From a virus (Duplodnaviria > Caudoviricetes): DNA of 64,000 nucleotides. Under the pieces are notes generated by a model. That model saw only the letters and a list, made by a program, of their open reading frames with translations. It searched no databases and was not told the DNA's origin. A program made the position numbers and the translations under genes. Position 1 is the first letter of the stretch; each line of letters opens with the position of its first letter. Shown piece after piece: positions 16,030 to 50,324 of the stretch. The stretch spans positions 148,569 through 212,568 of the IMG/VR virus record IMGVR_UViG_3300037067_015211; one strand, 5' to 3'.

Positions 16030-18009
16030 CTAATATTTTATTTTTATGTCGCCAGATGCAGTTTGAATGCCAGAATTTGTTTGATATGACAGGTCAATAA
16101 AAAATTTTTCATTAGATGCCCAAACTCCATTTGATAGTCCTGATGCTCCAGAGTACGCAAATTCATGTAATCTATTAGGATAATTATACCCATAAACAGT
16201 TTCGTTTACAACAGAAATCCCCTGCGTATCCTTTATTTTTATATAAGCATTAGATGTTTCATGTGCAACGGTTTCATATTTTGTAGAAAAACTCGGATAT
16301 TCATATTGGGTTGGCAAGGATGTGGTAATGTTTTCCCACACATCTGTATCAACATAATACTTCCAATGGTGTTGATTTGTGTAAAGCCCTCCAATAAGGT
16401 GTATTGTTCTATTTTCCGGATCCCAAAAGGTTGCCCCGCCACGATACTGCTGTCCATTTGCCGTGCCCTGTGTTGTTCCGCGCTTTGTCCAAATATTTGT
16501 TTCAATGTCATAAACATACGTTACGTATTTTGTTCCAGTGTCGTCGAGAGTGCCAAACACATATATTTTCCCCTCTATTCCTATTCCCGGCCTAAAAATA
16601 TATGTATTTAATCCAGTAGAAATTGGAGTATCCCACGTATTTGCAAATGGATCATAAACCAAAATGTATGGATATGCAGAAATGTCTATCCCAATTACAT
16701 ATATTTTGTCTCCATAAAAATAACATGGTCCAGATTGAATATCATAGCTAGAAGATACACTTGTTTTATTCGTTAGTGTCTGAGAAAAAATATTGTATGC
16801 CCAACAATAATAACCTTGAAAAATGAAAATATTGCCCAAACAATAAGCCGATACTGTTCTTTTACTTGCAGATGGTTGTGGTGCGGTTGTGCCTAAATCA
16901 ATAGTTTGCCAAGAATCGCCTTCTGTGTCATAAATTAACATTAATGTATCGTTTGGAGGGCTTTCCTGTCTATCAAAAACATAAACATTGTTATTATAAT
17001 ATCCGCACCATGCAATATAATCTATCTTCTCGCTTGGGCCTGTAAGGCCACTCCAAACACTTGTTTGTGGACTAAACTTATTCCAAACTGTTGAATCCTC
17101 TTGACCAATAAAAAAATCAAGGCTATAGTTGCTTTGTAGTTTTAAGGAAATATCGATTTCCTTTATTGTTCCCCTACATTGTAAATTAAATTCTTGATTG
17201 TACATTGTATTCAAGCCAGAGCCAACGGCAACAGACAAATTGTTTGCCCCGGTATATATGTTTGATTTTTCCTGATATACGCCAGAAACATAAGAATGTT
17301 TATATGTTGGCGATAAAAATTCTATATATCTTCCGCTATATAAATCGTGGCTATGCTTTTCCCCCGGCAATAACTCCGTTCCATTTTTCAAATCATTAAA
17401 ACCTGAAACATCAATTTCATCTATTGTAACACCAGAGTCTACGTTAAGGTCTCCATTAAGTGTTCCGCTACAAACGCTAATGCCGCCCGTTTGTTCTGGT
17501 GTAACAAGATGTGGATTATTGGCAATGCCCGAGAGCATATGAGATATCATAGAATTTGCTTCGGCAGATAGATCAATACCATTAAAAAGGCCGTCGATAG
17601 TTGTAATCGTGCTTCCACCATAAACCCCGGCCAAACCGCTTACATATAAATTATCCAGACCAGAGATATGATTTACCGCAACATCTTTTACAATAATTTG
17701 GTTAAATATACCAATATTTGCCTTTAGACCAGAGTGATATGAGAATACATATCCATTTTCATTAATAAGGTCTTGAACTTCCATTTCATTGGTCGTTATT
17801 CCAGAGACAAAAGCATCTCCAAATATATTGATATCATTTGCTACAGCACAGCTTAGGCCAGAAAACATCTCTTTAATAACAATGCCAGAAGAAAATTGTA
17901 AAATTGTTCCATGTGGATCAATATTGTTATCGTAGTGATCGCTCAAAATAACAACATATTTTTTTTCGCCCGGAGACTGTGTAATGCCATCAGTTACTAC
18001 TGTCGCCAT
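16030..18009 (-). CDS. tail fibre/baseplate protein with Kelch-type propeller
   Basis: Kelch-like repeats (KIYVIG, KIYVFG, YDP..NTW, HLIGG); N-half paralogous to 20114-21676. Confidence 0.7.
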   Translation of the reverse strand: MATVVTDGITQSPGEKKYVVILSDHYDNNIDPHGTILQFSSGIVIKEMFSGLSCAVANDINIFGDAFVSGITTNEMEVQDLINENGYVFSYHSGLKANIGIFNQIIVKDVAVNHISGLDNLYVSGLAGVYGGSTITTIDGLFNGIDLSAEANSMISHMLSGIANNPHLVTPEQTGGISVCSGTLNGDLNVDSGVTIDEIDVSGFNDLKNGTELLPGEKHSHDLYSGRYIEFLSPTYKHSYVSGVYQEKSNIYTGANNLSVAVGSGLNTMYNQEFNLQCRGTIKEIDISLKLQSNYSLDFFIGQEDSTVWNKFSPQTSVWSGLTGPSEKIDYIAWCGYYNNNVYVFDRQESPPNDTLMLIYDTEGDSWQTIDLGTTAPQPSASKRTVSAYCLGNIFIFQGYYCWAYNIFSQTLTNKTSVSSSYDIQSGPCYFYGDKIYVIGIDISAYPYILVYDPFANTWDTPISTGLNTYIFRPGIGIEGKIYVFGTLDDTGTKYVTYVYDIETNIWTKRGTTQGTANGQQYRGGATFWDPENRTIHLIGGLYTNQHHWKYYVDTDVWENITTSLPTQYEYPSFSTKYETVAHETSNAYIKIKDTQGISVVNETVYGYNYPNRLHEFAYSGASGLSNGVWASNEKFFIDLSYQTNSGIQTASGDIKIKY

Positions 18010-18012
18010 CTT

Positions 18013-19536
18013 TTATCCTAAATCAAAGTCTATGCCGTATAGACGAACTGCATTATTGTTGCTTGTATATAGTTCTGTTTTTAGAACTAGCGCATCTCCA
18101 GCTTGCCAGTTAGACCCTATGTTTGAAAGCTTCGTGGACGGAGCAGATACACCATAAAATCTACCTATACCCGCATTAAATAAATTTTCAATATCTGTAT
18201 CAGATTTATAGGCATTCCAATAACTCGCTTCATCCATTAAACCATCAAATGAATTTGTTGTAAATATAGATTTCACTAATTCCATATCCCAAGCATACCT
18301 TGCGCCAATAATAAAATCAGTGCCAATTGCCTGTGTGGTTTCAACCGTAGCTTCTGAAGTGGAATATAATGTTCCTGTCGAACAATCTCCAACATCTAAT
18401 TTAAATACATTTCCAGCACCATAAAATCTTCCTGCAATCATCCACCATTTGCCACTAATATCATCGCCAACAATTTGAGTGCAACTATTTGGCCCCATAC
18501 CATCTTTAAAAAGAAATACAAATTTTCGTCCAAAACCATCTCTTGTTATAGTAAGTGCCCAACATTCTGTGTCCATATCGGCAGTAACTTGTTTAAAGGC
18601 AATATCCCTAGTGGTAGAGAGGGCTATGTCACTTTCTGGTTTAATAAATACTGCATATGTGAAATCGCCCGTATTGGGGATAATAAAATTTGTAGGATAT
18701 GGAAGGGCATGGGTAAGATAATCCCCATCACCATTTTCAAAATCTAAACAATGATTGTAAATTCCACTGGAAGATTCTACCGTGCCCGTATTTGTCAAAT
18801 CAAATGCACCAACCGCGTCTTCGGCTGAAGTGTTTTCCATGTGCCAAACATGTTTTAAATCAGAATTCAAATTATCTGTATAGCTTTGATCCGCCGAATA
18901 TGTGAACATTTCAGGTGTTTGGCCCGTTCCGTTTTGGAAAACTGTAGTCACAACCTTGGCATCTGTGGCTACCGTACTGTCGGCATCAAAATTCAGTTCA
19001 ATTGTATTGGCTCCAAATGCCGCACTGGGCGGGAACTTTTTGGCAAAATACATGTCCAAATGCTCTTGATATGCCTGACTAGAAACAGCCTGTACAAATA
19101 AATTTGTACCGTTAAACCCTTCCGTAACCGTCAAGCCAGACTGTACGCCCAGCCCTGAACTATATTCTAGTCTAATTGCATGGAAGGGGGGAAGTTCATT
19201 ATTGGGACTAAAATATGGATAAACCTTAGCCTCTGTACCAGAAGCGTAGTTTATCACGCTGGAAATGCTAGATGTGTTCGTGCTCGTCTGTGCGCCCACT
19301 CCAGACGCATAGCCCGTAACGGCAGTGATTTGGGTAGTATGGGTGCCTACCGTGCTCGCTGTGGCCACCGCAAGCGTTCCTACGCCCGATCCGTATAGCT
19401 CTTCCTTGTACATCTGGTCATCTACGATGTCTAAACCAGAGTTTACATATGTTCCCCAGTTATCGGACTCTGTGTAGACCTGATTGGGAACTGGTTTTTG
19501 TATTGAATAATGACTTGTCGGTGTCGGATCTGCCAT
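18013..19536 (-). CDS. tail fibre with LamG/ConA-like domain
   Basis: N-terminal WGTYVNSGLDIVD; C-terminal FIIGAR...FDGLMDEASYWN..SDTDIENLFNAG. Confidence 0.75.
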   Translation of the reverse strand: MADPTPTSHYSIQKPVPNQVYTESDNWGTYVNSGLDIVDDQMYKEELYGSGVGTLAVATASTVGTHTTQITAVTGYASGVGAQTSTNTSSISSVINYASGTEAKVYPYFSPNNELPPFHAIRLEYSSGLGVQSGLTVTEGFNGTNLFVQAVSSQAYQEHLDMYFAKKFPPSAAFGANTIELNFDADSTVATDAKVVTTVFQNGTGQTPEMFTYSADQSYTDNLNSDLKHVWHMENTSAEDAVGAFDLTNTGTVESSSGIYNHCLDFENGDGDYLTHALPYPTNFIIPNTGDFTYAVFIKPESDIALSTTRDIAFKQVTADMDTECWALTITRDGFGRKFVFLFKDGMGPNSCTQIVGDDISGKWWMIAGRFYGAGNVFKLDVGDCSTGTLYSTSEATVETTQAIGTDFIIGARYAWDMELVKSIFTTNSFDGLMDEASYWNAYKSDTDIENLFNAGIGRFYGVSAPSTKLSNIGSNWQAGDALVLKTELYTSNNNAVRLYGIDFDLG

Positions 19537-19548
19537 AGTTATTTTCCT

Positions 19549-20109
19549 TTAACTTCCGTAAGAACCTTGCCCAAAATACCCTTGACCATAAATGCCAGTC
19601 AAAGATGGAGGCGTTACCATTCCCATATATAACTCGATATTTGTTGTTGTAAGTCCATTTTTTGTAATTGCCAAAAGGTTTGCAAACTCCCTTGAACTCA
19701 AATAACTAGATACACTTTCATTTGTTCTATCTTCCTCAACAAGCTTAAGAAACAAATAATATGTTTGTCCTGCAATAAGATCATTCCACCGCACATTAAA
19801 AATTTCAATATATACACCATTAATTATACATTCAAGTTCATCACAAATACATGCAATATTGCCATTGTCTTCATAAAGAAGATAAAAATCGCTTTCTCTA
19901 ATAACACCGTTTGCCCGAGTCATATAGTCGTTTATGGACAATGCTCTTGCAGTTCCATATACATTATTTTCAATAATGTCGGCATATCTTTTTTCAAGCT
20001 TGGCACTAAACTGGGTATCCCAAACCCCATCTTCATCTGCATCGTTTGGGTCAATAATTGGAAGCACATAATGGGTGCTTACTCCACCAACATATGATGT
20101 TATGGTCAT
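19549..20109 (-). CDS. baseplate/tail-tip protein
   Basis: Paralogous to N-terminus of 20114-21676 (ADIIENNVYG vs ANIIDNQLYG; TYYLFL vs TYYLYV). Confidence 0.6.
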   Translation of the reverse strand: MTITSYVGGVSTHYVLPIIDPNDADEDGVWDTQFSAKLEKRYADIIENNVYGTARALSINDYMTRANGVIRESDFYLLYEDNGNIACICDELECIINGVYIEIFNVRWNDLIAGQTYYLFLKLVEEDRTNESVSSYLSSREFANLLAITKNGLTTTNIELYMGMVTPPSLTGIYGQGYFGQGSYGS

Positions 20110-20113
20110 ACAG

Positions 20114-21676
20114 CTATCCTATATACTTTAAAGTATAATCAGAAACAGATGTAGTTAAACCAGAATCAGTTTTTAGCTCTAAAATAACAGTATACGCATC
20201 TCCAATATTCCATGTTCCAGAATCTATTCCTGATATTGAGAATGAAGATACGGCCAGTCCGCTTGTATATCTTGTTGCGTTTTCTAAAACTATATCGTTA
20301 TTTTCTGTGTCTTTTATATAAGCAGTTAATGACCCATCTGTGATATCGGCAGTTTCTTCTACATGTCGCACAAATAAAAATGGAGACACCCATTGCAAAA
20401 AGTTTGTTGGAATTATGTTTCTGCAAACAACGCTTGCCCTGCTATCAGATGCATCACCAGTTAGTTTATATAAAATATCATTGTTGCTATATTCTGTAAC
20501 AATGTATGACGAATACACCCCGCTAACGACAGTGTTTGAATATGTTGGATATTCTGTTGTTGTTCTTAACCCACTTGAATATTGATGGCTGTGCCAAATA
20601 TTTGTCAATTCAGAGCCATTAAATAATGGCGACATTGTGCTTAAATCAATTCCCGCAATTGTTACGCCAGAAGAAACAATTAATGGGCCGTGCAGTGTAT
20701 CGCCACTGCTCATTAGAGCACCAATTCCAGAAGCATGCGTTTGATGGGGGTTATTATAATTTGCAATATGGGCAGTAAATGCATCGTAATCGGATTCAAT
20801 ATTTCTATCATTTACTAAAACGCCAGAATCTAAATCAAGACTTCCCATTATAATTGCACTATCTTCTACGTTCAGTCCGCCATGAACATTTATTGCCCCC
20901 GTCACATCTATGGTTTGTGCTACAAGACCACTTGAAAAATCTCCGATTCCATTAATCACCATTAGCCCACTTTGAACAAGAAGGCCGTGATTTATTATAT
21001 TATTATAAACAGTAAGATTTTTGCATGCTACTGTATCTGCGGTCAACCCGCTTGCCGTCATCGAACCAAATATCCCAATGCCGCTTAATGTTACTTGATT
21101 TGTAATCAATTCTGTTTGATACAGCACAGACGTATGTGGATCTACATTAATGGCAATATGATCTATCAATCTTGGTGTTCTTATTTTATCTGGGGGAACG
21201 CTATCTATTGAAATTGCAGAACCAGTTGTTGTAACAATTGCAATAAGCAATCTTGTGTCCTGTTCTCTTTCTGTAGAATAGGCGGAAACGGTAAAATTTC
21301 CATATTGATATGTTGAATAATTTTCTGTTTCATCAACTGGGCTTATCGGTTCAACGTAAAGATAATATGTTGTGTTGTCCAAAAGCCCCGTTACTTCAAC
21401 CAAACCATTTGAAAAGAAGTATACTTGATTTATAAAACCCTCTAGCGTAGGGTGTGGTTTGTTTTCTCTAATTGATACGGTAGAATTATTTGTGGCAAAA
21501 GTGCCAGTATAGGTTCCATCGTCAATAATTCCGTGGCCATAACAATGAACGCGAATTGCCCCGTATAATTGATTGTCAATTATATTAGCGGCTCGTCTCT
21601 CTTCCGCCCCATCGATAACGTCACCAGATTTGACCGCCGGTATTAAATATCTTTTTGTTTGATAGCCGTATGTCAT
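20114..21676 (-). CDS. tail fibre/baseplate protein
   Basis: HI...NPH fibre motifs, trimeric beta-like composition, position. Confidence 0.65.
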   Translation of the reverse strand: MTYGYQTKRYLIPAVKSGDVIDGAEERRAANIIDNQLYGAIRVHCYGHGIIDDGTYTGTFATNNSTVSIRENKPHPTLEGFINQVYFFSNGLVEVTGLLDNTTYYLYVEPISPVDETENYSTYQYGNFTVSAYSTEREQDTRLLIAIVTTTGSAISIDSVPPDKIRTPRLIDHIAINVDPHTSVLYQTELITNQVTLSGIGIFGSMTASGLTADTVACKNLTVYNNIINHGLLVQSGLMVINGIGDFSSGLVAQTIDVTGAINVHGGLNVEDSAIIMGSLDLDSGVLVNDRNIESDYDAFTAHIANYNNPHQTHASGIGALMSSGDTLHGPLIVSSGVTIAGIDLSTMSPLFNGSELTNIWHSHQYSSGLRTTTEYPTYSNTVVSGVYSSYIVTEYSNNDILYKLTGDASDSRASVVCRNIIPTNFLQWVSPFLFVRHVEETADITDGSLTAYIKDTENNDIVLENATRYTSGLAVSSFSISGIDSGTWNIGDAYTVILELKTDSGLTTSVSDYTLKYIG

Positions 21677-21678
21677 TT

Positions 21679-32117: not shown

Positions 32118-33038
32118 TTAGTCCTCGTAAATAGATGGTGAACCATCATCACCGGCGAACATAACCAGATTGGCGGTTCTGCCCAACATGCCATTAATAT
32201 TCCCGCCGTTAACCGGATCTGTTATGATATGACAATGTGGCATAACGACTCGTTTATTGCCATAGGTAACTCGTAATTCAAATGGCCCTGCCCCTAAGAT
32301 TGAATTTTCTGCACCAATTTGAATATAGTATCCCAAAGTGGCTGTCACTTGCATTCTACTTTGGCTAACCCTATGGGCATTTACATTGTCACCAAAGGTA
32401 TATTCTACATACGTGCCATTATCGATTGCCAGATTAAATTGAAATATTGCTTTGGGGTCAATAATGGACGATGAAATACCATCAATTTCAAAATCACACT
32501 TCCACCAAGCCAGAGGCGAATAATTATCGTTTCCACTCGTTAAAGGATCATATGGAATGTATGGTTCAAAATGATATTTGGGGGTGCCGGTAATTTCTTC
32601 GTTCAGAATGGCCCCAGTGGCCTTAAATGAAGCCGTAAATGCAACAGCCTGCCCAGCGGTATAGTTCATGCCCAAATTCGATACAAGGCACTTCCCGCCC
32701 TCATTAGGGAGTGTTGCCCTGCCCGAATAATGGGCAACTACAATGTTTTCCCTTCTCGTTGTTGCATCTATTGTGTGGTTAAATATTTCCTCAAAGCCTT
32801 TGGCAAAATTATCGCTCGTACCGGTAAAAATATTTCCGCTTAAATCAGCGGCATTGTATTCAGTTTTTGTGCTCTGGTAATTTACTTCAAAATGTTTTTG
32901 TGCCGATGGGTCGCCCCCATAGCCATGTACTGCTTCCGAAAATACAATATTATCGTATGCTTTGATACCGCCAGATGCTTGTAGCGAATATCCATTAATA
33001 AGATAATAATCTCGCCAACCGAGTGAATAATCAGCCAT
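32118..33038 (-). CDS. tail tube paralogue (minor)
   Basis: Colinear similarity with 33142-34173 (INGYS, VHGYG, FEP..PY, DN..PL.W). Confidence 0.7.
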   Translation of the reverse strand: MADYSLGWRDYYLINGYSLQASGGIKAYDNIVFSEAVHGYGGDPSAQKHFEVNYQSTKTEYNAADLSGNIFTGTSDNFAKGFEEIFNHTIDATTRRENIVVAHYSGRATLPNEGGKCLVSNLGMNYTAGQAVAFTASFKATGAILNEEITGTPKYHFEPYIPYDPLTSGNDNYSPLAWWKCDFEIDGISSSIIDPKAIFQFNLAIDNGTYVEYTFGDNVNAHRVSQSRMQVTATLGYYIQIGAENSILGAGPFELRVTYGNKRVVMPHCHIITDPVNGGNINGMLGRTANLVMFAGDDGSPSIYED

Positions 33039-34188: not shown

Positions 34189-34959
34189 TTAGAACGCAGG
34201 CGTTCGTTCCGGAATATTTACAATATTAACTTCGTCCGTTGCATCGCCACCAGTCGTTTGAATGTTGGTAACATCGATAAATGTATCAGCAGTTGTTCCA
34301 ACATTAACTTCCGAGTCAAGAGTCGTAATTGTAACGTCAATTGTAGTCTCGGTGCCATCTTCCTGTGTGGCATAAATTTTCATATCCACATCGGAAGTAA
34401 GCCCAGAAATTACTACGCACTTTAATTGAGATGCACAATAATTTCCAACTCCAGCATTGCCAGTGCCCGTCCCGAGAGCAACACCATCCGTAAAGGTACA
34501 GCCAGTTCCTGAACCAACAATTGTTGCGGTGCCCATAACGTGTATGTATTGGTCAAACACATTGTTGGCTGAAAGGTGACGGCCATTTACGTAGTAATAC
34601 ACTTCTTCGTATTTGGAGTTTACGTTGATACCGGAGTTTGTGAGAAGTGTATTGAGATTCGCCGATCCACCAACCACGTTCTGCACATGTGTATCGTGTG
34701 CTCGCACAACATTAGAAAAAACTGTAGATGCAATTGTGCTTTGTGTAATACCATTGATATCAAGGGTCTTACACGAAGATGCCAGATCGCCCTCAGACCA
34801 AGCGTTATTGTCAATCGTAATATGGCGATATGCTTCTTCTCCATCAGCGGGTGAAGCATTTACAATACCGCTCTGAATCTGTTCCCACATATATGCATAG
34901 TGGTCCGTTACATTCTCGATACCACTATTGCTAATAACCTGTTTTGTTACAGTGGACAT
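34189..34959 (-). CDS. virion structural protein
   Basis: T/G/N/S-rich, upstream of tail tube. Confidence 0.6.
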   Translation of the reverse strand: MSTVTKQVISNSGIENVTDHYAYMWEQIQSGIVNASPADGEEAYRHITIDNNAWSEGDLASSCKTLDINGITQSTIASTVFSNVVRAHDTHVQNVVGGSANLNTLLTNSGINVNSKYEEVYYYVNGRHLSANNVFDQYIHVMGTATIVGSGTGCTFTDGVALGTGTGNAGVGNYCASQLKCVVISGLTSDVDMKIYATQEDGTETTIDVTITTLDSEVNVGTTADTFIDVTNIQTTGGDATDEVNIVNIPERTPAF

Positions 34960-38352: not shown

Positions 38353-40227
38353 CTATTCGTCAAATATGTCTTGTATTCCGTTATACCATCCAGAATCATG
38401 TGAATCTTCTGGATCATAACTACCATTATCGCCCCAATTATTTGTAATACCCGAATACCATCCTCCAGAATGATCTGTAGTTTCTCCACTGGCTGGGATT
38501 CTTGAAACCACGATTGTTTCTGATACTACTGCATCGGAATAACTATCACCCACTTTTGAAGCCGCAAAGAATGTATAATGTTTTCCTCGTTCAAGTCCAC
38601 TTGAAGCAATAATGCCGTCTCCATCTCTCGATCCAGCGGGATTGTAATTATTTATAGTGCTAGACTCATTTCTGATGTGCAAATAATTTGTTGCCCCGGG
38701 ATAGGTGTCGGAGAATGTGGTTGTATTTGTTGTTTGGTTTAATGCTATGGTTATTATAGGTGGAGAAACTTGGATTGTGGTGCCGATGAATTCTCCCGTA
38801 TATTCCTCATTATAGCCATATTTGACATTCAATTGAGTTTGGGCTATTGTGGGGACTACAAATTTTCCTTCACTGTTACCATCATTGTAAATAACGCCAG
38901 ATACCACTCTGGATATAGACGGTTGTGTAGGCGGTACATATGTTCCTGCACTTACTCCAGAAAGAACTGAAGCGAGAGAGACTAACCCCTGTACTCCGCT
39001 TGTAGTATCGTTGGCAAGCGTGTTAATTGGCTCTGAGTAATCGGGGATAAATGTTCCTACCCCCACACCAGACAATAAGGCAGATGGGGGAAGCAGACCA
39101 GTTACACCACTAGAAGTATCAATGTTCAAAAGATTTGCCGGATCCGCGTAGTCGGGAATTAAGGTTCCCGCGCTTATGCCTGATAGTACAGATGAAAGAG
39201 AAATTAACCCTTGTACACCACTTGTGGTATCATTTGCCAGCGTATTGATTGGCTCAGAATAATCAAGCACTAAAGTTCCATAGGAAATTCCAGACAATAC
39301 GGCTGAATTTGGAATTGCTCCGCTATATTGAATACTATTAAAATAATAATTTTTATTTTCAATTACATTTAAAAAAATTGGATCTGAAAAATAATCGCCC
39401 TCGAAACACCCGATACTCGGGGTTGTCTCATGTCGCGCTTGCCCAAAAATGTCAGTCGCGATCCCCACAATCGGCGTACCGGCGTGATACAGTTCGGACG
39501 TATTCAATATTCCCATCGGCAACGACAATACGCCGATATATTTCCCAGTCGTCAACTCCTTGCTCGTGAGATTGTTTCCGCCCGCCGCCGTTGCGCCGCT
39601 CGTGGCGTTGTATCCGCTCGAAGCGTTCAGCGTTCCCGTAATCGCGCCAAACGGATCGGAGCCGCCGATACAATCGCAATTCTGAATCAGCACGTCATCG
39701 ATATTCGTGCCGATAACTAATGTAAAATGTTCGGCGTCGAAGTTTTTGAACGTACAATTTTGGACAATCAGGTTTCCGCCCGATCCTTGCGTGGCGCGAA
39801 TTCCGTAATCGTACCCATTCAAAAAAAGGCAGTTTCGGAAAGTTACGGTCCCGGTTCTCGTGTAGTTTCCAAATGCTATCTGCGTTCCTTGTAGCAAATC
39901 CAGTATGCAACGGTCAAAAACTACATTTCCGCCTGTCTGGTTTAGTGCAATGCCGGAGCGCGCAAGGTTTATTTTTGAAAAGGTGAGCGTCTCAGTAATT
40001 GATCCACCGTTCCCGATAATCAGATTGCCATTTCTCGTGGTGCCTATACGAATATCATCGTATTGCCCGACAATATTTAGCCCTTTTGTAACGGTTGTAT
40101 TTCCCTCGGCGAAAGCCGCATCTCCGGCATTGCGATACCATTCAATTGTATCGCCATCGCTTGCTGCTGAGTTAGCCGTAGCAAACGTAGAATATGTCTT
40201 TCCGTCACCTAGCGTAAGCGTAGCCAT
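38353..40227 (-). CDS. virion appendage with beta-helix (pectin-lyase-like) domain
   Basis: GKTYSTFATA..AASDGDTI start, NC.F repeats, DIFGQARH..PSIGCFE; internal repeats. Confidence 0.7.
   Translation of the reverse strand: MATLTLGDGKTYSTFATANSAASDGDTIEWYRNAGDAAFAEGNTTVTKGLNIVGQYDDIRIGTTRNGNLIIGNGGSITETLTFSKINLARSGIALNQTGGNVVFDRCILDLLQGTQIAFGNYTRTGTVTFRNCLFLNGYDYGIRATQGSGGNLIVQNCTFKNFDAEHFTLVIGTNIDDVLIQNCDCIGGSDPFGAITGTLNASSGYNATSGATAAGGNNLTSKELTTGKYIGVLSLPMGILNTSELYHAGTPIVGIATDIFGQARHETTPSIGCFEGDYFSDPIFLNVIENKNYYFNSIQYSGAIPNSAVLSGISYGTLVLDYSEPINTLANDTTSGVQGLISLSSVLSGISAGTLIPDYADPANLLNIDTSSGVTGLLPPSALLSGVGVGTFIPDYSEPINTLANDTTSGVQGLVSLASVLSGVSAGTYVPPTQPSISRVVSGVIYNDGNSEGKFVVPTIAQTQLNVKYGYNEEYTGEFIGTTIQVSPPIITIALNQTTNTTTFSDTYPGATNYLHIRNESSTINNYNPAGSRDGDGIIASSGLERGKHYTFFAASKVGDSYSDAVVSETIVVSRIPASGETTDHSGGWYSGITNNWGDNGSYDPEDSHDSGWYNGIQDIFDE
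38940..39290. repeat. three ~37-aa (111-bp) internal repeats
   Basis: DYSEPINTLANDTTSGVQGL..L.SVLSG.SAGT twice, flanking a diverged DYADPANLL copy. Confidence 0.85.
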
Positions 40228-40846: not shown

Positions 40847-41800
40847 CTATCTCCTAAAATTTTTCTTTTTGTATGCTCTACTAAACTTAAAGTCTTTTAA
40901 TCCCTGCTTATGATCTTCAAAAAATTCTGATGTGGCATTTACGCCACTCATATAAAGCAGTTCCTTTTCCTGCTTCGTAATGCCAAAATTTGTAGAACTA
41001 ATATTAAACGTATCTATTACAACTATCCTATTTTTCCAATCTTCCGGTTCTATGTACAAATAATCTGCACCGCCGGAAATAAAATCTATAAGCCCACATA
41101 TATAATCATAGGGTCCGGTGACTTCTTTATATTTTTTATTTTTATCCAAATCTCGTAAAATAAATCCAACTGTTTTTATGCCACTATTTTTGAAGAGATA
41201 GATGGGCAACATACAGGACATTCCACCATCTACAAAATAAACCTTGCGGCCTAAACTATCCTTGATATTATATTGTTTGAAAAAGAATGGGATTGACATA
41301 GATGCCCTAATTGCATCTGCCACTGGAAATTTATCTGCATCAAGGCCATACATGTCTTCAAGATCGTCGGGCAATACAACTCCATGTGAATTAGACAAAT
41401 CAGACGCTATTACATGTAATTTGTAACCATCCTTTGTTTTTAAGTCTCCGAATGTCGTAATTCCCTTATCCTGCAATAGTTTAGCAATCCATTCCCTAAA
41501 AAATTTACCCTTATAAAGCCCATCTTCCCACAATGCCGTAATTAGACTGCCAATAAATGGTATATTGTTAGTCCACCATTTATCACAAAATTTATTGTAA
41601 TCAGTATCTTCAAGGATTTGCTTACATTCGTAAGCCGTATACCCAGCGGCCACCAGAGCCGCCATAATGGCCCCTGCGCTCGTTCCAGCAGTTTGGTTGA
41701 CCAAATACCCTTCTGTCTCACAAACTGAAATAGCACCCGTATACGCGCTTCCTCGAACGCCGCCACCCTGAAATACCATATTTAGTAATTTTTTAGCCAT
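40847..41800 (-). CDS. patatin-like phospholipase
   Basis: GGGVRG oxyanion loop, GTSAG nucleophile, ASMSIP, DGG catalytic Asp. Confidence 0.93.
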   Translation of the reverse strand: MAKKLLNMVFQGGGVRGSAYTGAISVCETEGYLVNQTAGTSAGAIMAALVAAGYTAYECKQILEDTDYNKFCDKWWTNNIPFIGSLITALWEDGLYKGKFFREWIAKLLQDKGITTFGDLKTKDGYKLHVIASDLSNSHGVVLPDDLEDMYGLDADKFPVADAIRASMSIPFFFKQYNIKDSLGRKVYFVDGGMSCMLPIYLFKNSGIKTVGFILRDLDKNKKYKEVTGPYDYICGLIDFISGGADYLYIEPEDWKNRIVVIDTFNISSTNFGITKQEKELLYMSGVNATSEFFEDHKQGLKDFKFSRAYKKKNFRR

Positions 41801-43108: not shown

Positions 43109-43557
43109 TATGCTGTCCTTTCAAAAGATATCATTTCGAAATATGTCGCATATCCCGTTCCCGTTTTTGTATCACACAGTAAAGTTACTGTATGTGAACC
43201 AGCCGATATTTCGATATTTGCGGTGCTAAAATCTGGAAGATAAGTGGCGGCTATATTCGTATCATATCCACTATCGTTAACAGTGACTCCGTCGATCTGA
43301 ATTTTCAAAATCCCACGGTTTGCGGCAGTAATACAAAATGCTCGTAATGTATAAGTACCTTTTGCAAAATAAAAATTCCACGAATGGTTGTCCCCACTAT
43401 CAGCAGAACTTTGCCCATATCCACTATTCAGAGAAGAACCATCATCAATAGTAGCCGTAAAAGTTCCTTGACCAGTAGAATCTGGCGGCATGGTTAGGGG
43501 AAAAATTACTATCGGAGAAGCTCCCCCCACGTCCTTGAGAATCGTTGTCGTACCCAC
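43108..43557 (-). CDS. CBM6/35-like beta-sandwich protein
   Basis: AKGTYTLR...RGILKIQIDG...AGSHTVTL. Confidence 0.65.
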   Translation of the reverse strand: MGTTTILKDVGGASPIVIFPLTMPPDSTGQGTFTATIDDGSSLNSGYGQSSADSGDNHSWNFYFAKGTYTLRAFCITAANRGILKIQIDGVTVNDSGYDTNIAATYLPDFSTANIEISAGSHTVTLLCDTKTGTGYATYFEMISFERTA

Positions 43558-44480
43558 TATGCTGTCCTCTTCAAAAGCATGGAACTGAAACCATGTATGA
43601 CATAGGCCGAGGATGAAGCATTCTTTCCGTTACATACTGCACGTAAAGTATGTATGCGGTTTGGATTGGTTATTGTTATGTTTGTTTGAGTAGTAAATAT
43701 TCTCGCTGTAGCCGCCGCATACATGTCTAGCGAGAACTTATAAACATCATCAATATACCAGTCGATAATTCCGGCATTATTTTGTACCTGATGATATTGA
43801 ATGGCGGTATATGTTCCAGCGGCGGCAATAAAATTCACTGACCAACTATCCCCATCGGCGACAGTTGACGAAAGCCACGGTTGTATTCCATACAGGAAAT
43901 TGGCGTTTGTGCTAGTGTTACGATACCATGTCCCGACTAAAGCAGTTGCCGCACAATTTATCGATGGGATGATAAGTATCGGAGACACACATTCTTGCTC
44001 TTCCGGATTGGTCGCCGTTCCGATAACGTAGGACGTTGGTTTCCATGATATGCCATAGAATCGATTTAGGTATCCAGTCGAGGATGCGTTGTGCCCATCA
44101 GTCAAAAGTTTTATGGCGTGTTTACCGTTGCCTATTGTTATTCCCGTGAATGACGCGAAAGTATTTAAATCACTAACGCCATAACAGTCTTGTGAACTTA
44201 TATAGTTATCGTCCACGTATAACTTGACTATTGAGCGATTTGTCGCTCTACCATAGTCAAGGCGCATTGTGTATGTACCCGCTGGAAGCCAAATGTTATG
44301 TGTATAGTTATCGCCATCGGCGTTACTGGCTAGGTTATTGAAGTCTGCGTTATATTTATAAAATCCAACGAATTGAGTAGTAACCCAAGTACCTTGCCCC
44401 ACACTATCCGCTCCCATGTGTCCGGGATGATAGAACAGCGGTAAATTTCCGCCCGGCTTCATAAAAGATGTTATGCCCAT
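43557..44480 (-). CDS. tandem CBM6/35-like protein
   Basis: Two copies of DGD...AGTYT...YVDD/YIDD...H.I/L module. Confidence 0.65.
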   Translation of the reverse strand: MGITSFMKPGGNLPLFYHPGHMGADSVGQGTWVTTQFVGFYKYNADFNNLASNADGDNYTHNIWLPAGTYTMRLDYGRATNRSIVKLYVDDNYISSQDCYGVSDLNTFASFTGITIGNGKHAIKLLTDGHNASSTGYLNRFYGISWKPTSYVIGTATNPEEQECVSPILIIPSINCAATALVGTWYRNTSTNANFLYGIQPWLSSTVADGDSWSVNFIAAAGTYTAIQYHQVQNNAGIIDWYIDDVYKFSLDMYAAATARIFTTQTNITITNPNRIHTLRAVCNGKNASSSAYVIHGFSSMLLKRTA

Positions 44481-45358
44481 TAAGAAGTCTCCAACGTTAC
44501 GGCACCATGAGAGATTCTAAGTGAACTGGTAGCACTATCCATTGTTTCAATAGTACCAGTTGTATTTTGCGTTTCAATCTGGGCAAATCCACCGGCGATT
44601 GTATTTACACCTATGTAATTGATATAATCACCGGTATTCGCTATAAATCTAAGTCCACCATTTGTAGCTGGATTTTGCACCGCAAACCAAATTCCACCTT
44701 CAGCAGATGGCAACGTTACAGCCGCCATACCACTAGAATATGATGATATTGTTTTGCCGCTATCGTCCGTGGTTAAAGTATGTGGGGCACCAATGCCACT
44801 CGCGGCCGGAATTAAAATAACTGTTCTTTGGCCAGATGCAGAGCCACCTGCTTCCACATCCGTAGTTCCGCGCATCAAATGGCTGTCACTTGCTCTAACC
44901 CAAACTGTATTGTCCCCACCGGGATTAGATGCTTTTGCAATAAAATCTATACCACTATGGGATAAAATTCCGCTCGTAGCCTCAATAATAGTAAATTTAA
45001 CATTATCGGTTGTATTAAGGCTTTGGTCATAGGCTGTTCCACCACCACCAACACCAGATTCAACATCTGTGTCGCCGCGCATCAGATGTCCGCTCGCTTG
45101 AGATACCCATAATGTTGATGCGCCACCCGGATTTGACGCCTTGGCAATAAAATCAATTCCACTTTGAACCACAATTCCACTTGAAACTTCAATTATGCTT
45201 TGTTTGGCATATGTATCGGCGGTTAATATTTTATTTTGAATAGCGGAAACATAAGCCGCATAATCATTGCCGCTAATACCGCTTGTACCAACAAACATTA
45301 ATGCATTGTCCGGTATGCCAGACAATACGGTTAGTTGTGTAATATTTTTGTCGGCCAT
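44480..45358 (-). CDS. virion fibre/appendage protein
   Basis: MADKNITQL start; ~48-aa internal duplication (SGIDFIAKASNPGG...HLMRG.TDVE). Confidence 0.65.
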   Translation of the reverse strand: MADKNITQLTVLSGIPDNALMFVGTSGISGNDYAAYVSAIQNKILTADTYAKQSIIEVSSGIVVQSGIDFIAKASNPGGASTLWVSQASGHLMRGDTDVESGVGGGGTAYDQSLNTTDNVKFTIIEATSGILSHSGIDFIAKASNPGGDNTVWVRASDSHLMRGTTDVEAGGSASGQRTVILIPAASGIGAPHTLTTDDSGKTISSYSSGMAAVTLPSAEGGIWFAVQNPATNGGLRFIANTGDYINYIGVNTIAGGFAQIETQNTTGTIETMDSATSSLRISHGAVTLETS

Positions 45359-45404: not shown

Positions 45405-47441
45405 TTATTCTGAAGGCATCCAATATCTTCCTTGCCCCTCATTTGACAATAATTGTGCCGCCGTTAAATTAAGATCGTCATGCCAAATATATACCTCGTC
45501 AATCGTGCCATTAAAATAATCTGTACTTGACCCGCTTTTATGACCAAGATATGTGCCAGACGCAGAAACCGTATTGTCTAATGGCCCCATAGTTCTATAC
45601 GGTGTGCCGCCCGATGGATTAAAAGACGAAATAGTTGTATCTAGCCAAGCAGAACCGTTTACAAAAATACGAATTGTATCACCGGTTGTATTAGCGGACA
45701 TTAAGATATGATACCATGTATCTGTTGAAAGTGTTAAATCAGTATATGGCATAGCTTCGCCTAAATCATCCTTAAGAACTACTGAAATTTTACCGAAGGT
45801 TGAAATGAAAAGACGAAATCTATCGTCTGATGCTGAAGAGTCTGTGCTATCATACAAAATCGTATGCTGTGTGCCGATACTATTTAGTTTTATCCAACAT
45901 GAAGCACTTATTTTTGTAACACCCTGTGAAAATCCCAAAACATTAGTAAAATATTGTTTATACGTTTTATTCATTGCAATGGCAATAAAGCTTGTTCCAT
46001 TTCCCATTGTATATGATTGCGGCGTACCGGTATATTGCGGTGTTAAATCTAAATCTCCCTTTGAATCTGTAGTGTCAAATTCCCATTTCCATGCGTGTTT
46101 TAAATTTTCTCCATAAGCATCAAGAGTAGCGTTATTAAAACTATCGTTGCCAAGATTTGCCACTTTTGTTATACTACCGCCACCTGTAGTGTATTTCAAA
46201 ATATTCAAGCTACCTTCAGGCGCAGATGCCGCTTGATGTAAATTATTGTCACCCTCAAGATAAACATGCCAATCTGTTTTGTCGTCCAATAATGCCGTAG
46301 TGCCGCTTTCAATTGAATACAAATTGCCGTTGTATTTCCATTCACCAGCAGTATAATCTGCGTTTAACCCACTAGAAATAGTAAACATTGGTTGTGTAAT
46401 TATATATGTTTCTATCGGTATTGAATTTGTACGACACAAAACTAATCGTCCACCACCATCCCGTAATCTAAAATCTCTACCATCTTGTGTTAAAAAGCTA
46501 TCACAAAAATTAGTGCTATATAGGAGATAATACACATTTTGTGTATTTGTTGTATAATCCCAATCGTCACAAACATCGCCATCGACTGCACCAACAAGCC
46601 ATGTTTCATCTGCGTTAACAAATTCTTGTCCTTGATTCATAAAACCAAAACGATCACATGTTATTGTTCCTACAATTGTTTCAACTAAAATTGATAATGT
46701 TCTTATAGAGCCAGTTTCAGCAACCATATCAGCATAAGATGTATAAAAATCAACAGTCATTGTTGTACCATCACTTTTTGTTCTTGCCCAATATTCCGTG
46801 TCAATTACAATGTCTCCATCAGAACCAATTGAATATTTTGTCCCACCAACAGAATTTGAAACAAGAAAATATGGTGCTCCAGCATTGGTAACTGTAAAAA
46901 TAATTGAATTTGGAGTTGGAGAGTTAACACCGGAGTTAAAAAGACCAAACCAAATTGTAAAATCAGAATTAATGACAGTTCTTTTAAAGTTTACCCAATA
47001 ATCAAATTCTGATGTCTCAAGATAATTTTGTTTTGTATTTCGTAAATAACTTATTTTTTTTGTGGTAGAATTTTCATTTTTGAAAAAAAGTTGTAATTTA
47101 TCTGCAACAAAGCTAACCGCACTTGTTCCACCGCCAGAAATGGTTTCAGTCCAACCAGAAAGCGTTTCTCCACTTTCATCTGGATGATCTGTTTCATTCC
47201 ATGTTTCACCATTAGCACAACCAGCATGTCTTGTTGTCGAAGATGAAGATGTTTTTACTGTTCGATAAACATATTTGTTTCCATTATTTGTATCTGTACA
47301 CTCAGTAAATCCATATGTGTAGTCATCCCAGAGCAAAACATGATCGTCATTTGCAGGAATAATCATGCCAGCACCAGAAACACTTTCATATGGCGCGGCA
47401 CTTTGGTTTGCATTAAACCATTTTCTTGTTAATTTCCCCAT
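45405..47441 (-). CDS. LamG-domain virion protein
   Basis: SASCWIK...TWYHI...IRIFVNG...FNGTIDEVYIW. Confidence 0.75.
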   Translation of the reverse strand: MGKLTRKWFNANQSAAPYESVSGAGMIIPANDDHVLLWDDYTYGFTECTDTNNGNKYVYRTVKTSSSSTTRHAGCANGETWNETDHPDESGETLSGWTETISGGGTSAVSFVADKLQLFFKNENSTTKKISYLRNTKQNYLETSEFDYWVNFKRTVINSDFTIWFGLFNSGVNSPTPNSIIFTVTNAGAPYFLVSNSVGGTKYSIGSDGDIVIDTEYWARTKSDGTTMTVDFYTSYADMVAETGSIRTLSILVETIVGTITCDRFGFMNQGQEFVNADETWLVGAVDGDVCDDWDYTTNTQNVYYLLYSTNFCDSFLTQDGRDFRLRDGGGRLVLCRTNSIPIETYIITQPMFTISSGLNADYTAGEWKYNGNLYSIESGTTALLDDKTDWHVYLEGDNNLHQAASAPEGSLNILKYTTGGGSITKVANLGNDSFNNATLDAYGENLKHAWKWEFDTTDSKGDLDLTPQYTGTPQSYTMGNGTSFIAIAMNKTYKQYFTNVLGFSQGVTKISASCWIKLNSIGTQHTILYDSTDSSASDDRFRLFISTFGKISVVLKDDLGEAMPYTDLTLSTDTWYHILMSANTTGDTIRIFVNGSAWLDTTISSFNPSGGTPYRTMGPLDNTVSASGTYLGHKSGSSTDYFNGTIDEVYIWHDDLNLTAAQLLSNEGQGRYWMPSE

Positions 47442-47453
47442 TTAGCGTCTTCT

Positions 47454-47687
47454 TTATAGTGTGAAAAGTTGACGATAATAAACATCTGTTGTTGTTTTTA
47501 TTGTCTCAAATACATATTCATTGCCAGTGTCAGTATCCGTACAAATAGTAAATCCTGTTGTATTGTCTTCCCAATCGTCAGTGTGGCTATTGTCTAGCGG
47601 ATATATTAAACCAGCCCCCGACAATAAAGCATAAGGCACAAAACTTTCCGTTGTATAGTTGGTCCAATTTTTATTTATTTTTGTCAT
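47454..47687 (-). CDS. small virion protein
   Basis: Start MTKINKNW; paralogous to N-terminus of 45405-47441. Confidence 0.65.
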   Translation of the reverse strand: MTKINKNWTNYTTESFVPYALLSGAGLIYPLDNSHTDDWEDNTTGFTICTDTDTGNEYVFETIKTTTDVYYRQLFTL

Positions 47688-47695
47688 AGGAGTCC

Positions 47696-48835
47696 TTATG
47701 CAAAATATGTAACTATAATTACATCGTTTTCTGTCCAATCTCCTGTTAAGCCAGAATGCCCATCGACATTTTTAAAATATATTTTATTTGTATCCATTTC
47801 AAAATCAGGTGTAGACCCAGTTGCGCCAACAATAGATTTATTGATTTGCATAGGCCCACCATCTGGAAATGCCGATACGGAGATTGGATTTATTGGCGTA
47901 TTGTTTAGTGAGAAGTAACCACTAGCATAATCCCCCCCCGATATTTTATGCGCTTCACTTATTGTCCTGTTTGTGTTATAAATACCAGATGCGTAAGATG
48001 TCAGGGTGTCAATTTCATTTAATAATTGGCTATTAATTCCAGAAGCATAAGAAATTGTTGTATCTAAAAGATTATCTATCCCAGATGCAAAAGTCGAAAC
48101 AACAGACAACGATGCATCAAGCTTTCCAATAGCAATATTATGAGTGTCACCATTTGTAATATAAATATTGCTTGCATATGTTGGAGTCGATGCTGTTTTT
48201 TGTGTGCCATCATCTTCACCAACTTTGTTCGATAAATTATCGACATTTGCTTGAATGGCGGCAGTGCCAAGGTTTACTAATTCATCTATATTGCCAGAAC
48301 TTGTAGTATATCTGACCAACCCAATTCGACCATCAGGAATATAACTTCCATGATGTAAGGATGTATCGCCCTCTAAATAAATGTACCAATTTGTTTTGTC
48401 GTCTAACAATGTTTCAGTCGATGGAGAAATAGAATAAGATGTTCCATCGTATTTCCAAGAACCAGCCGTATAGTCTGCATCTAGCCCACCGGCATCTGTA
48501 AAAATTGGTTGTGTAATTACATATGTGTCTTGTACTGAGCCGCCTCCGCCAATCTCAGTCCATGAAGCATAGCCGTCCGCAACTTTATAATGTTTATTGT
48601 CAGAAATAAGATAATAAATTCTTCCGGCCAAACCAGATGAAGCCGATGGCAAACTATCTGTATAATAAACAGGATCGCCATTAACAAATGTTACCTTCAA
48701 AGCATTTGTTGCATCATCAAACACTGCGTTTAAAACATGTTCATTGCTAAGAAGCGTAGTGGTATTTAATCCACTTATTAGATGAACGGTATTTAAAATA
48801 TATTGGTTTGAATAGAATGTCATATTTGACTCCAA
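47696..48835 (-). CDS. virion (head fibre-like) protein
   Basis: Directly after capsid gene; shares ~85-aa module with 45405-47441. Confidence 0.65.
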   Translation of the reverse strand: MESNMTFYSNQYILNTVHLISGLNTTTLLSNEHVLNAVFDDATNALKVTFVNGDPVYYTDSLPSASSGLAGRIYYLISDNKHYKVADGYASWTEIGGGGSVQDTYVITQPIFTDAGGLDADYTAGSWKYDGTSYSISPSTETLLDDKTNWYIYLEGDTSLHHGSYIPDGRIGLVRYTTSSGNIDELVNLGTAAIQANVDNLSNKVGEDDGTQKTASTPTYASNIYITNGDTHNIAIGKLDASLSVVSTFASGIDNLLDTTISYASGINSQLLNEIDTLTSYASGIYNTNRTISEAHKISGGDYASGYFSLNNTPINPISVSAFPDGGPMQINKSIVGATGSTPDFEMDTNKIYFKNVDGHSGLTGDWTENDVIIVTYFA

Positions 48836-48894
48836 ATAAAAAATATCTTCTTATAAATAATAGTGATTAAAAAAAGGAATATATAATTACAAAT

Positions 48895-48931
48895 AAAAAA
48901 AGCGGAGAGTTTTAAGGCTCTCCGCTTTTTT
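48895..48931. terminator. bidirectional rho-independent terminator after major capsid gene
   Basis: AAAAAAGCGGAGAG-loop-CTCTCCGCTTTTTT. Confidence 0.9.
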
Positions 48932-48943
48932 GTTCTCGATTTA

Positions 48944-49828
48944 TTACGAGAGGAGGATTCGGCAAACACCGCCAGTGATGAGAATTGTGGGAACAACGTA
49001 TTCGAAGAATACGAGTCCTTCTTCGAGCAAGCCGATACCGTAGCCAGCGGCGTCTTTCGAAGAAATCTCAATCTGGATGGTGAATACACCGAGATGCTCG
49101 GGTACTGCGCTGACGAATGCGCGATTCTGGGGGAGAATACGAGTAGGAATCTGTCGGACAGCCGCGCCCCAGAGGTCTCCCATGAGGCCGGTCTTGACCA
49201 ATTCCTGTTGTTTCTCACGACCGAAATCAGCATCAGTCCATGTGAGGAAGTTGGCGTAATTCTTGCTGTTGACGACGATATTGCCTACAGGAGCATTACG
49301 GTCGATGATCTGAACGTATGCTTCGGCAAGGCAGTCACGCGACAGCGAGGAATACGAACTTACGAGGTCATTGTAGGCAGAGCCAAGTGTGGAACCGGCT
49401 GTGGGTGTGGCGGCAAGGAAAGCGTTCAGTGTATCGGTGTCTTCCTTTTCCGCCATCTTGGCCTGCGCCTTGAGGCTGTGCTGGTCGATTAAATTATAAT
49501 TTGCGGTCTCGATGTCAACAATCGGGAAGCGCAAGAGAGCAGTGATGGGATATGAACGCGGCTCAACCCATTCGTCCGTGATATAGGTTGTGGGCACTTG
49601 GCCATGCTCGGAAATTGTTACTGCAACAAGATCCGCGTCCTTGTGATACTTGGGGTACTTGTCGAGGCCCACATTGTGCTTGAGAAGCAGTTTTGTGGTA
49701 TGACCAACCCAGTATTTACCCTCAAGGAACGGCCCATAAATGTTCTCTTGGGCAATGCGCTGACGACCTTCACTGGTCTTCAGCAAACTTGCAAACTCAC
49801 GCGCGTATCGATCCATTTCATTCTCCAT
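48944..49828 (-). CDS. major capsid protein (HK97 fold)
   Basis: 294 aa after protease/scaffold and decoration genes, raised GC3, AEKED..L, LMGDLWGAAV, strong terminator. Confidence 0.8.
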   Translation of the reverse strand: MENEMDRYAREFASLLKTSEGRQRIAQENIYGPFLEGKYWVGHTTKLLLKHNVGLDKYPKYHKDADLVAVTISEHGQVPTTYITDEWVEPRSYPITALLRFPIVDIETANYNLIDQHSLKAQAKMAEKEDTDTLNAFLAATPTAGSTLGSAYNDLVSSYSSLSRDCLAEAYVQIIDRNAPVGNIVVNSKNYANFLTWTDADFGREKQQELVKTGLMGDLWGAAVRQIPTRILPQNRAFVSAVPEHLGVFTIQIEISSKDAAGYGIGLLEEGLVFFEYVVPTILITGGVCRILLS

Positions 49829-49874
49829 TTCATGTTTAAAATTTTACAGTTTTAAAGAACAAATTAATTCTCAA

Positions 49875-50324
49875 TTAGTCGCCTGTTGAAGCGAAGTCAA
49901 TGTTGCCGTCAACAACATCAGCGTCCGCATCCCAATGGCCAACAAGCTTGGTTCCAACGCCACTGGCCGCGATTGTGGTCAGTGCGCCAGTCGAATCAAA
50001 ATAAATGTCGTCGCCATGAGCGAGAGATGCAGAAATACCAGAAGCGAAGGTGCCTGCACTTGTGAACTCGTTGTTATACGCTTCAGGAGCGAATACAACT
50101 TTGTCCATGATAATTGCAACGCTTGTCTGCCCGTCAGAAGCTTTCTTGCCTTCAACAATAAATCCCTTGGGATAATTGTCGGTTGTCGGAACTTCCAAAG
50201 CACCTGTTGTTCCAACCTGTCCTACACGACCGGGAATCCACTGATCCGTGTCCGTCACTGTGGCACTTCGGCGCATATATCCACCGCGCTTGATGTCCAG
50301 CATAATTGTTTTGCTTCGACCCAT
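49875..50324 (-). CDS. capsid decoration protein
   Basis: 149 aa between scaffold and capsid; GDDIYFDSTGALT pattern. Confidence 0.65.
   Translation of the reverse strand: MGRSKTIMLDIKRGGYMRRSATVTDTDQWIPGRVGQVGTTGALEVPTTDNYPKGFIVEGKKASDGQTSVAIIMDKVVFAPEAYNNEFTSAGTFASGISASLAHGDDIYFDSTGALTTIAASGVGTKLVGHWDADADVVDGNIDFASTGD

Follow-up and report, generated by a model that had tools for sequence, protein, structure and literature searches.

The tripeptide Ser-Gly-[Ile/Leu/Val] (SG[ILV]) is packed into seven fibre-like proteins of an uncultured phage, with 60 copies against 6.7 expected, about nine times chance (pooled Poisson p about 6e-36). The proteins are encoded in the final 64 kb of a 212,568-bp IMG/VR genome (IMGVR_UViG_3300037067_015211, hereafter G000; 38% GC, 95% complete according to CheckV), and this whole 64-kb stretch, which carries the structural module on its minus strand, is what we call the window. 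Our tentative reading, which we rate at somewhat less than an even chance, is that SG[ILV] is the acceptor motif for a phage-encoded cytoplasmic O-glycosylation, the modification itself being predicted from sequence; a purely structural role is almost as likely as that of a marker for sugar attachment. In the trimeric, fibre-like appendages that this clade builds, we take the motif to be specific for Ser and to occupy the turn from which a β-strand or short helix starts.

Distribution and form of the motif

The seven carriers, named by their window coordinates and all encoded on the minus strand, are listed here with observed/expected counts (aa, amino acids).

16030..18009, minus strand: paralog of 20114-21676 with an inserted Kelch propeller (30% identity over about 245 aa plus the final 68 aa); SG 19/5.8, SG[ILV] 13/1.2
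18013..19536, minus strand: fibre-like protein of 507 aa with repeated Y-[AGS]-S-G-[VL] units within its first 140 aa; SG 8/3.9, SG[ILV] 6/0.7
20114..21676, minus strand: tail fibre/tailspike-like protein of 520 aa with DHxxxNxxPH and HSH motifs, β-helix-like at 200-290 and a β-sandwich at 370-519; SG 15/4.4, SG[ILV] 12/1.1
34189..34959, minus strand: 256-aa protein directly upstream of the two tail-tube genes; SG 5/1.9, SG[ILV] 4/0.4
38353..40227, minus strand: 624-aa protein with a β-helix-like N-terminal part, about 3.5 tandem 37-aa units and a C-terminal domain; SG 18/7.4, SG[ILV] 11/1.6
44480..45358, minus strand: orphan fibre-like protein of 292 aa in the head-proximal block, with a duplicated SGI-x3-SGI-DFIAKASNPGG unit; SG 13/4.3, SG[ILV] 8/0.9, all eight being SG[IV]
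47696..48835, minus strand: 379-aa protein adjoining the capsid gene, with three [YF]-A-S-G-I units, each before a short coiled-coil-looking segment; SG 9/3.9, SG[ILV] 6/0.8

Every one of these counts that had been made by hand in an earlier, sequence-only reading of the window was reproduced exactly, and the enrichment persists after correction for Ser and Gly content, a check set beforehand, both in the observed and expected numbers and in residue shuffles that keep composition (for SG[ILV], five proteins reach p<=5e-5 and the remaining two p<=7e-4). Genome-wide, 60 of the 98 copies of SG[ILV] sit in these seven open reading frames (ORFs), and the remaining 270 ORFs hold 38 against 41.9 expected. 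SG is the top dipeptide (z = 9.8), and SGI, SGL and SGV are the top tripeptides among those occurring more than twice; the reverse dipeptide GS is not enriched (19 SG and 2 GS in 16030-18009, for example). When an ORF of at least 150 aa with Poisson p<1e-4 is called enriched, 5 of 135 qualify in G000 and 3 of 129 in G001, its only complete relative (194 kb, 25-35% protein identity), against 1 of about 620 in controls drawn from 35 other viral loci or genomes. Part of the count is inflated by internal repeats, namely the 37-aa units of 38353-40227 (each with two SG[IV]), the duplicated unit of 44480-45358 and the [YF]ASGI units of 47696-48835 and 18013-19536, and the paralogy of 16030-18009 and 20114-21676 also contributes.

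The motif is strict. Among xG[ILV] tripeptides of the seven proteins only those with Ser are in excess (observed/expected S 60/6.7, T 3/7.3, N 6/4.9, D 5/4.5, G 6/7.1); in S-x-[ILV] Gly alone is in excess, and the excess of SG-x is limited to I, L and V. The fibres of G001 repeat this Ser-specific pattern (S 35/4.7). The flanks favour V, Y or F at -2 (31 of 60 copies), A or S at -1 and T, G, S, D or N at +3 to +5; the position profile has hydrophobic residues at -6, -4, -2 and +2 and no acidic cluster, and Asp at -1 is rare (6 of 87 SG). A fuller form can therefore be written as [VYF]-[AS]-S-G-[ILV], with YASGV, YSSGL, FASGI and VSSGV as examples. The motif is encoded with every one of the six Ser and four Gly codons, which argues for selection at the level of the protein and rules out a signal in the DNA.

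Other virion proteins of the window are poor in the motif or carry isolated copies.

19549..20109, minus strand: free copy of the N-terminal domain of the 20114 family, 186 aa; 0 SG
32118-33038 and 33142-34173, minus strand: two adjacent tail-tube paralogs (Phage_tube_2; 306 and 343 aa); 4 SG and 0 SG[ILV] each
48944..49828, minus strand: major capsid protein (phrog_2522); 0 SG, the negative control within the virion
49875..50324, minus strand: putative decoration protein, 149 aa, between the protease-scaffold and capsid genes; FASGI and AASGV

Since the free N-terminal domain has no SG, it serves as an internal control for an anchor domain that lacks the motif. The 1162-aa protease-scaffold protein has 2 SG, and the tape measure has 10 SG but a single SG[ILV]. 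It had been remarked from sequence that the Kelch segment of 16030-18009 and the product of 43557-44480 are nearly free of the motif, and so they are: the Kelch part holds one SG (SGP), nearly all copies lying outside it, and 43557-44480 has none.

Several observations concern the carriers themselves. The C-terminal 320 aa of 38353-40227 are nearly identical to those of a homolog (P0008), whereas identity falls to about 30% over the N-terminal 300 aa and P0008 carries one 37-aa unit more; judging from this alignment, 38353-40227 is a mosaic fibre that has undergone recent module exchange and a change in repeat number. In two head-proximal proteins encoded near each other, residues 75-190 of 47696-48835 and residues 316-431 of 45405-47441, which also has a Laminin_G_3 lectin-like domain, form a common, motif-poor domain of 116 aa with 45% identity. 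Sequence searches of the seven proteins in PHROGs, Pfam and the PDB returned nothing useful except the Kelch propeller of 16030-18009, and structure searches in the Atlas returned generic viral fibre look-alikes only; those of 44480-45358 are viral fibre clusters (Mtd_N, PTL_trimer, DUF2793) at TM-scores of 0.38-0.43, to be taken as leads only.

Structural setting and conservation

At least five protein families contain the motif, and neither BLAST nor profile search relates them to one another: 18013-19536 has no detectable kinship with the 20114 family, and the five carriers outside that family escaped its profile (E about 1-5). The settings of the motif include a β-helix-like stretch, a β-sandwich domain, an NPH linker helix and coiled-coil-looking segments. 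The recurrence across unrelated folds on which the sequence-only reading had relied is thus borne out, and a single repeat fold as the source of the motif is contradicted by the profile searches and by the model of 20114-21676.

This protein, described as the richest carrier, was modelled as a monomer with AlphaFold2 from a 97-sequence alignment (pLDDT 86.5). The model consists of an N-terminal β domain, the β-helix-like stretch, a helix, an NPH/HxH linker and the C-terminal β-sandwich, and Foldseek matched it to the Klebsiella K2-2 tailspike, the gp52 fibre of phage Kp7 and sandwiches resembling carbohydrate-binding modules (CBM). Eight or nine of the 12 SG[ILV] lie in turn or coil directly before a strand that opens with the I, L or V (198, 209, 249, 284, 336, 368, 472, 505); sites 236 and 385 are mid-strand and site 316 is in a short helix. 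The sites are spread over both the helix-like part and the sandwich. Likewise, [YF]ASGI precedes short coiled-coil-looking segments in 47696-48835 and in an 841-aa protein of G001. The latter (133852-136377, minus strand; L014) has about ten Y-A-S-G-I-E-[ST]-M-R-R and Y-A-S-G-I-N-x-Q-L units that resemble those of 47696-48835, and is encoded far from the main structural block of G001. The hallmarks of HxH/NPH trimeric tail fibres were found in 20114-21676 and 16030-18009 only, with H173, P180, H181, H362 and H364 invariant in 30 sequences.

Fibres of this general kind do not need the motif. None of the structural proteins of T4 is enriched (observed/expected SG[ILV] 0/0.8 in gp12, 4/1.5 in gp34, 1/2.1 in gp37 and 2/1.2 in fibritin), and the eleven xG[ILV] of T4 fibritin have I, Q, I, N, Q, G, N, S, S, A and R as x. 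In 14 other fibre ORFs with DHxxxNxNPHG there is no excess (9 against 8.0 expected), so that a generic property of NPH-motif fibres could be rejected as the source. In two members of the 20114 family, P0029 and P0033, the NPH unit recurs five to seven times and SG[ILV] is absent; the unit therefore does not need the motif.

The 20114 family is large, unannotated and metagenomic, with 565 representatives at E<=1e-3. In a sample of 148 members, sites 198, 336, 368, 385, 482 and 505 of 20114-21676 are conserved, with Ser in 60-80%, and where Ser is lost at these family sites the replacements include Y, F, E, K and M. Sites 209, 249, 472 and 316 are particular to the lineage; at the last (S316-G-I) the family has mostly A-Q-V. 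Orthologs down to 45% identity keep 8-12 of the 12 sites, while at about 30% identity density is kept and sites move (P0005 has 3 shared and 4 of its own, 16030-18009 has 6 shared and 7 of its own), a turnover to which alignment error contributes.

The protein-by-protein pattern is also kept in relatives at 28-60% identity. A 59% relative (L080), for which the first 19.7 kb of a 104-kb metagenome contig were examined, has 10/0.8 SG[ILV] in its ortholog of 20114-21676, 7/0.7 in that of 18013-19536 and 12/1.1 in that of 16030-18009, and its tape measure, hub, 186-aa and 1089-aa proteins are at expectation; a 45% relative behaves alike. Orthologs of 18013-19536 at 61% and 33% identity stay enriched (7/0.7 and 5/0.8). 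Of the four SG-rich proteins of G001, two have no relative in G000. The G001 ortholog of 34189-34959 (about 30% identity) has one site aligned exactly and another three residues off, and in the G001 counterpart of the putative decoration protein, taken as an ortholog because of its position at only about 25% identity, a single SGL lies close to the first site. Further loci were sought in several ways: a back-translated DHxxxNxNPHG pattern found 31 viral loci and 0 members of the 20114 family; alignment searches with glycosyltransferase and portal sequences found G001, a fragment of G001 and distant glycosyltransferase homologs only; and a query with a single glycosyltransferase protein gave no match.

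Glycosyltransferases and the competing readings

Six to eight genes for soluble glycosyltransferases (GTs) and an amino-sugar pathway are encoded in G000, 25-46 kb upstream of the window. The sequence-only reading had noted that the window holds no glycosyltransferase, which is correct for the window as judged by GT2 and GT1 models and wrong for the genome, where a GT cluster spans 116.7-123.3 kb. The four ORFs with model matches are, in genome coordinates:

117395-118231: GT2-like, weak match
118924-119901: GT2
119879-122080: GT1 domain in a 733-aa protein
122096-123349: GT1 domain

A sugar island on the plus strand at 102.7-109.3 kb encodes VOC, HAD-domain, GNAT and methyltransferase proteins, a DegT/EryC1 aminotransferase (a strong match) and a MaoC-SDR fusion; from 102724 to 123349 the island and the GT run are interleaved with a deoxynucleoside monophosphate (dNMP) kinase, an HNH endonuclease and a phage metallopeptidase. 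A search for sugar-modifying clusters elsewhere, proposed along with the motif, thus led to a soluble multi-GT cluster and an amino-sugar pathway in the same genome. The ORFs of the GT cluster have 0 transmembrane (TM) segments, and in the 99-124 kb interval a single TM-like stretch occurs in the small ORF that closes the sugar island and in two other ORFs. No ORF of the genome has more than four TM-like segments, that is, there is no multi-pass membrane protein and therefore no encoded flippase, polymerase or oligosaccharyltransferase; stepwise glycosylation of a cytoplasmic target would fit this gene set. In scans with Pfam and NCBIfam the GT-cluster ORFs had generic GT2 and GT1 matches only, no dedicated model for the bacterial autotransporter heptosyltransferases (BAHT) having been searched.

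Co-occurrence of GTs with Ser-Gly enrichment in related phages had also been suggested as a check, and G001 does encode homologs of six GT-cluster ORFs, with three GT2 matches, together with SG[ILV]-rich fibres; DegT is absent from it, unlike G000. A 149-kb GT-bearing phage (G004) was rejected as an independent replicate, its SG excess either preceding any residue (SGQ, SGE, SGS) or lying in a Gly-rich 210-aa protein without an aromatic residue at -2. No homologue of thymidylate synthase (PF00303, E<=0.01) was found in G000 or G001, whereas control genomes matched; the known routes of DNA glycosylation through hydroxymethylcytosine (hmC), hydroxymethyluracil (hmU) and 5-hydroxycytosine (5hoC) start with such a homologue (PMC13326640). 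A search for Tet/JBP was uninformative, since the controls had no match.

Together these observations suggest how the phage could work. Its own soluble GTs would read SG[ILV] as an acceptor signal, the fibre proteins would be O-glycosylated on the Ser of the motif in the host cytoplasm, during or after folding, and the product would be sugar-decorated head and tail fibres. We infer that the GTs act on protein and that the Ser of the motif is the site. The acceptor reading is supported because Ser is strict and the motif is lineage-restricted and found in unrelated proteins and settings; because density is kept despite the turnover of sites, and the fold can dispense with the motif; because a soluble GT cluster common to G000 and G001 would otherwise be unexplained; because neither genome has a thymidylate-synthase homologue; and because TibC and its substrate TibA provide a precedent, discussed below. 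Extended to the clade, the proposal is that these phages may coat their head and tail fibres with a phage-made glycan, added by soluble cytoplasmic GTs to the Ser of [VYF]-[AS]-S-G-[ILV] at strand-start turns, which we consider possible and somewhat more doubtful than not. In G000 the glycan would probably contain an N-acylated amino sugar.

Several findings weigh against glycosylation of the motif. The tail-tube and capsid proteins, abundant and exposed on the virion, are without SG[ILV], and the carriers are fibre-like, whereas capsid and tail tube are the modified proteins in the mycobacteriophages considered below. Richness in SG[ILV] is family-wide, reaching 735 against 154 expected in the pooled 148 representatives (TG[ILV] 139 against 145), and at the six conserved sites of 20114-21676 Gly is at least as conserved as Ser, as it would be in structural turns. 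GTs and motif are known to co-occur in two related genomes only, the GTs have diverged too far for an acceptor to be assigned from sequence, and the GT cluster is flanked by genes for the dNMP kinase, RuvC, an SbcC-like protein, RecA and the α subunit of DNA polymerase III. Because the cluster sits among genes of DNA metabolism, DNA or another target of the GTs is possible. The sequon-directed O-modification of the virion surface put forward from sequence is therefore upheld in part: the enrichment, the several folds and the GT cluster agree with it, and it falters at the link from GT to serine, at the capsid and tail tube, and at those sites whose conservation throughout a large fibre family resembles that of structural positions.

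The closest competitor, to which we also give rather less than an even chance, is that the motif is purely structural. Ser-Gly would then be a specific tight turn or strand-start cap and the aliphatic residue the first core residue of the next strand, inherited and re-used across the trimeric fibre modules of the clade through duplication and shuffling, and the GT cluster would serve another target, for example DNA or a host glycan. The placement of most sites of 20114-21676 before a strand in a confident model is what such a cap would give, and a strand-turn-strand arrangement would account for the hydrophobic residues at -6, -4 and -2. Six family-conserved sites adjoin the HxH and NPH hallmarks, much of the count lies in tandem or duplicated units, every carrier looks fibre-like, with capsid and tail tube lacking the motif, and the fibre genes are visibly mosaic. 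However, generic turns would also use N-G, D-G and T-G, and only Ser is enriched; the NPH repeat unit exists without SG[ILV] in P0029 and P0033, T4 fibres and other NPH-motif fibres have no excess, and the motif is also present in non-β contexts and in proteins unrelated by profile. In addition, the bulky or charged residues that replace Ser suggest positions that are not tightly packed.

Another trans-acting factor could read the motif, such as a clade-specific fibre chaperone or trimerisation aid, or an enzyme that modifies Ser in some other way (acylation, phosphorylation). The strictness of Ser, the several unrelated proteins, the lineage specificity and a turnover of sites at constant density would suit such a reader as well, and the GNAT and MaoC/SDR genes of the sugar island would suit acylation. 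We regard this as improbable: the neighbourhood of the fibre genes yielded no chaperone or kinase candidate, and because a sugar aminotransferase belongs to the same operon as the acyl genes, their product is more likely an N-acyl amino sugar than an acylated protein. Finally, although the carriers are S- and G-rich (9-12% each) and have internal repeats, it is highly improbable that composition, a DNA-level signal or one repeat counted many times produced the excess, since composition is ruled out by the shuffles, GS is not enriched, the codons are heterogeneous and the motif appears in many non-repeated contexts and unrelated proteins.

Genomic context and comparison with known systems

The structural block begins, in the order of transcription, with a 659-aa ORF, the portal, the 1162-aa protease-scaffold fusion, the small decoration-like protein and an HK97-type capsid, and continues with fibre-like and lectin-like genes, neck genes, the two tail-tube paralogs, a 1752-aa tape measure, the hub and a run of fibre genes. 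The 659-aa ORF sits where terminase usually is and has no family match, so that its identity as terminase is putative; tblastn of this ORF and of 20114-21676 against cultured phages gave no match. A very long tape measure and the absence of a sheath gene from the structural module suggest that G000 is a jumbo siphovirus-like phage.

Other genes of G000 deserve mention in their own right. Within the head-to-tail structural block there is a patatin-like phospholipase (window 40847-41800, minus strand; PF01734, E 2e-30), which may be a virion-associated lipase. A TnpB-type gene (OrfB_IS605 with a Cas12f-like TNB domain) is present in four copies, at window 6070-7284 (minus strand) and at genome 3056-4048, 10535-11797 and 51472-52710, all of which resemble a single gene of G001. 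A ResIII/DEAD helicase encoded on the opposite strand (window 9346-10779, plus) is 94% identical in the 59% relative, where its neighbours are 26-65% identical, and this suggests recent exchange or very strong constraint.

To our knowledge, glycosylation of phage virions is established only for a few actinobacteriophages, and we know of no simple sequon for it. If our reading is correct, SG[ILV] would be the first O-glycosylation sequon to be defined by sequence in the appendages of a bacteriophage, and glycosylated appendages could be predicted from genomes in which the strict tripeptide accompanies a GT cluster. Such a pairing would also offer a ready test system and would bear on host recognition, on evasion of antibodies or proteases and on efforts to design phage parts decorated with glycans. 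Should the motif prove purely structural, it would still cleanly identify a large fibre family that lacks annotation (565 representative clusters), and it would warn against reading an excess of Ser-Gly in fibres as a sequon.

Among known systems, the xylosylation site of eukaryotic proteoglycans shares the Ser-Gly dipeptide. That site needs acidic flanks, whereas here the flanks are V, Y or F at -2, A or S at -1 and I, L or V at +2, and no GT14-type xylosyltransferase is evident; the analogy with proteoglycans drawn in the sequence-only reading must be abandoned, the flanks being hydrophobic. The general O-glycosylation motif of Bacteroidota, D-[ST]-[AILVMT], is likewise made of three residues with a hydroxyl and an aliphatic side chain, and is used in the periplasm with the help of a flippase and an oligosaccharyltransferase. 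Here Gly stands between Ser and the aliphatic residue, Asp at -1 is rare, Thr is not used, and there is no flippase or oligosaccharyltransferase.

The NPH/SGGTLTG repeat of tail fibres and the xG[IL] starts of T4 fibritin, where loop passes into coil, resemble our case in that 20114-21676 has an NPH unit and HxH and in that the motif sits at the start of a strand or helix. Those proteins admit various residues before Gly, whereas ours have Ser there nearly throughout and carry the motif outside the repeat unit as well.

Mycobacteriophages Che8, Corndog and Myrna encode GTs that O-glycosylate virion proteins, the capsid among them, in the host cytoplasm, according to a summary (PMC12363180) of the work of Freeman et al. 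2023. G000 is alike in that the phage genome encodes GTs, and differs in that host and phage lineage are unrelated. Freeman and colleagues are reported to have found the tail tube modified as well, and we know of no defined tripeptide sequon for that system.

A close parallel may be found in the BAHT systems, in which TibC or AAH modifies TibA or AIDA-I. TibC heptosylates Ser313 of TibA within the sequence N-S-G-G-A-V of a β-helix, and it does so on Ser, not Thr, in the cytoplasm (PMC4358343). The BAHT targets are secreted adhesins, whereas ours are phage fibres; an aliphatic rule at +2 has not been described for BAHT, and the phage GTs match generic GT2 and GT1/GT4 models only, with no BAHT-type enzyme recognised in the Pfam and NCBIfam scans. 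On the other hand, in BAHT systems a soluble cytoplasmic enzyme acts on many serines, and not threonines, in short inter-strand turns of a repetitive fibrous or solenoid protein, and the likeness here consists in the Ser-only enrichment of SG[ILV] and in its placement, taken from the monomer model of one protein, in the turns that precede β-strands.

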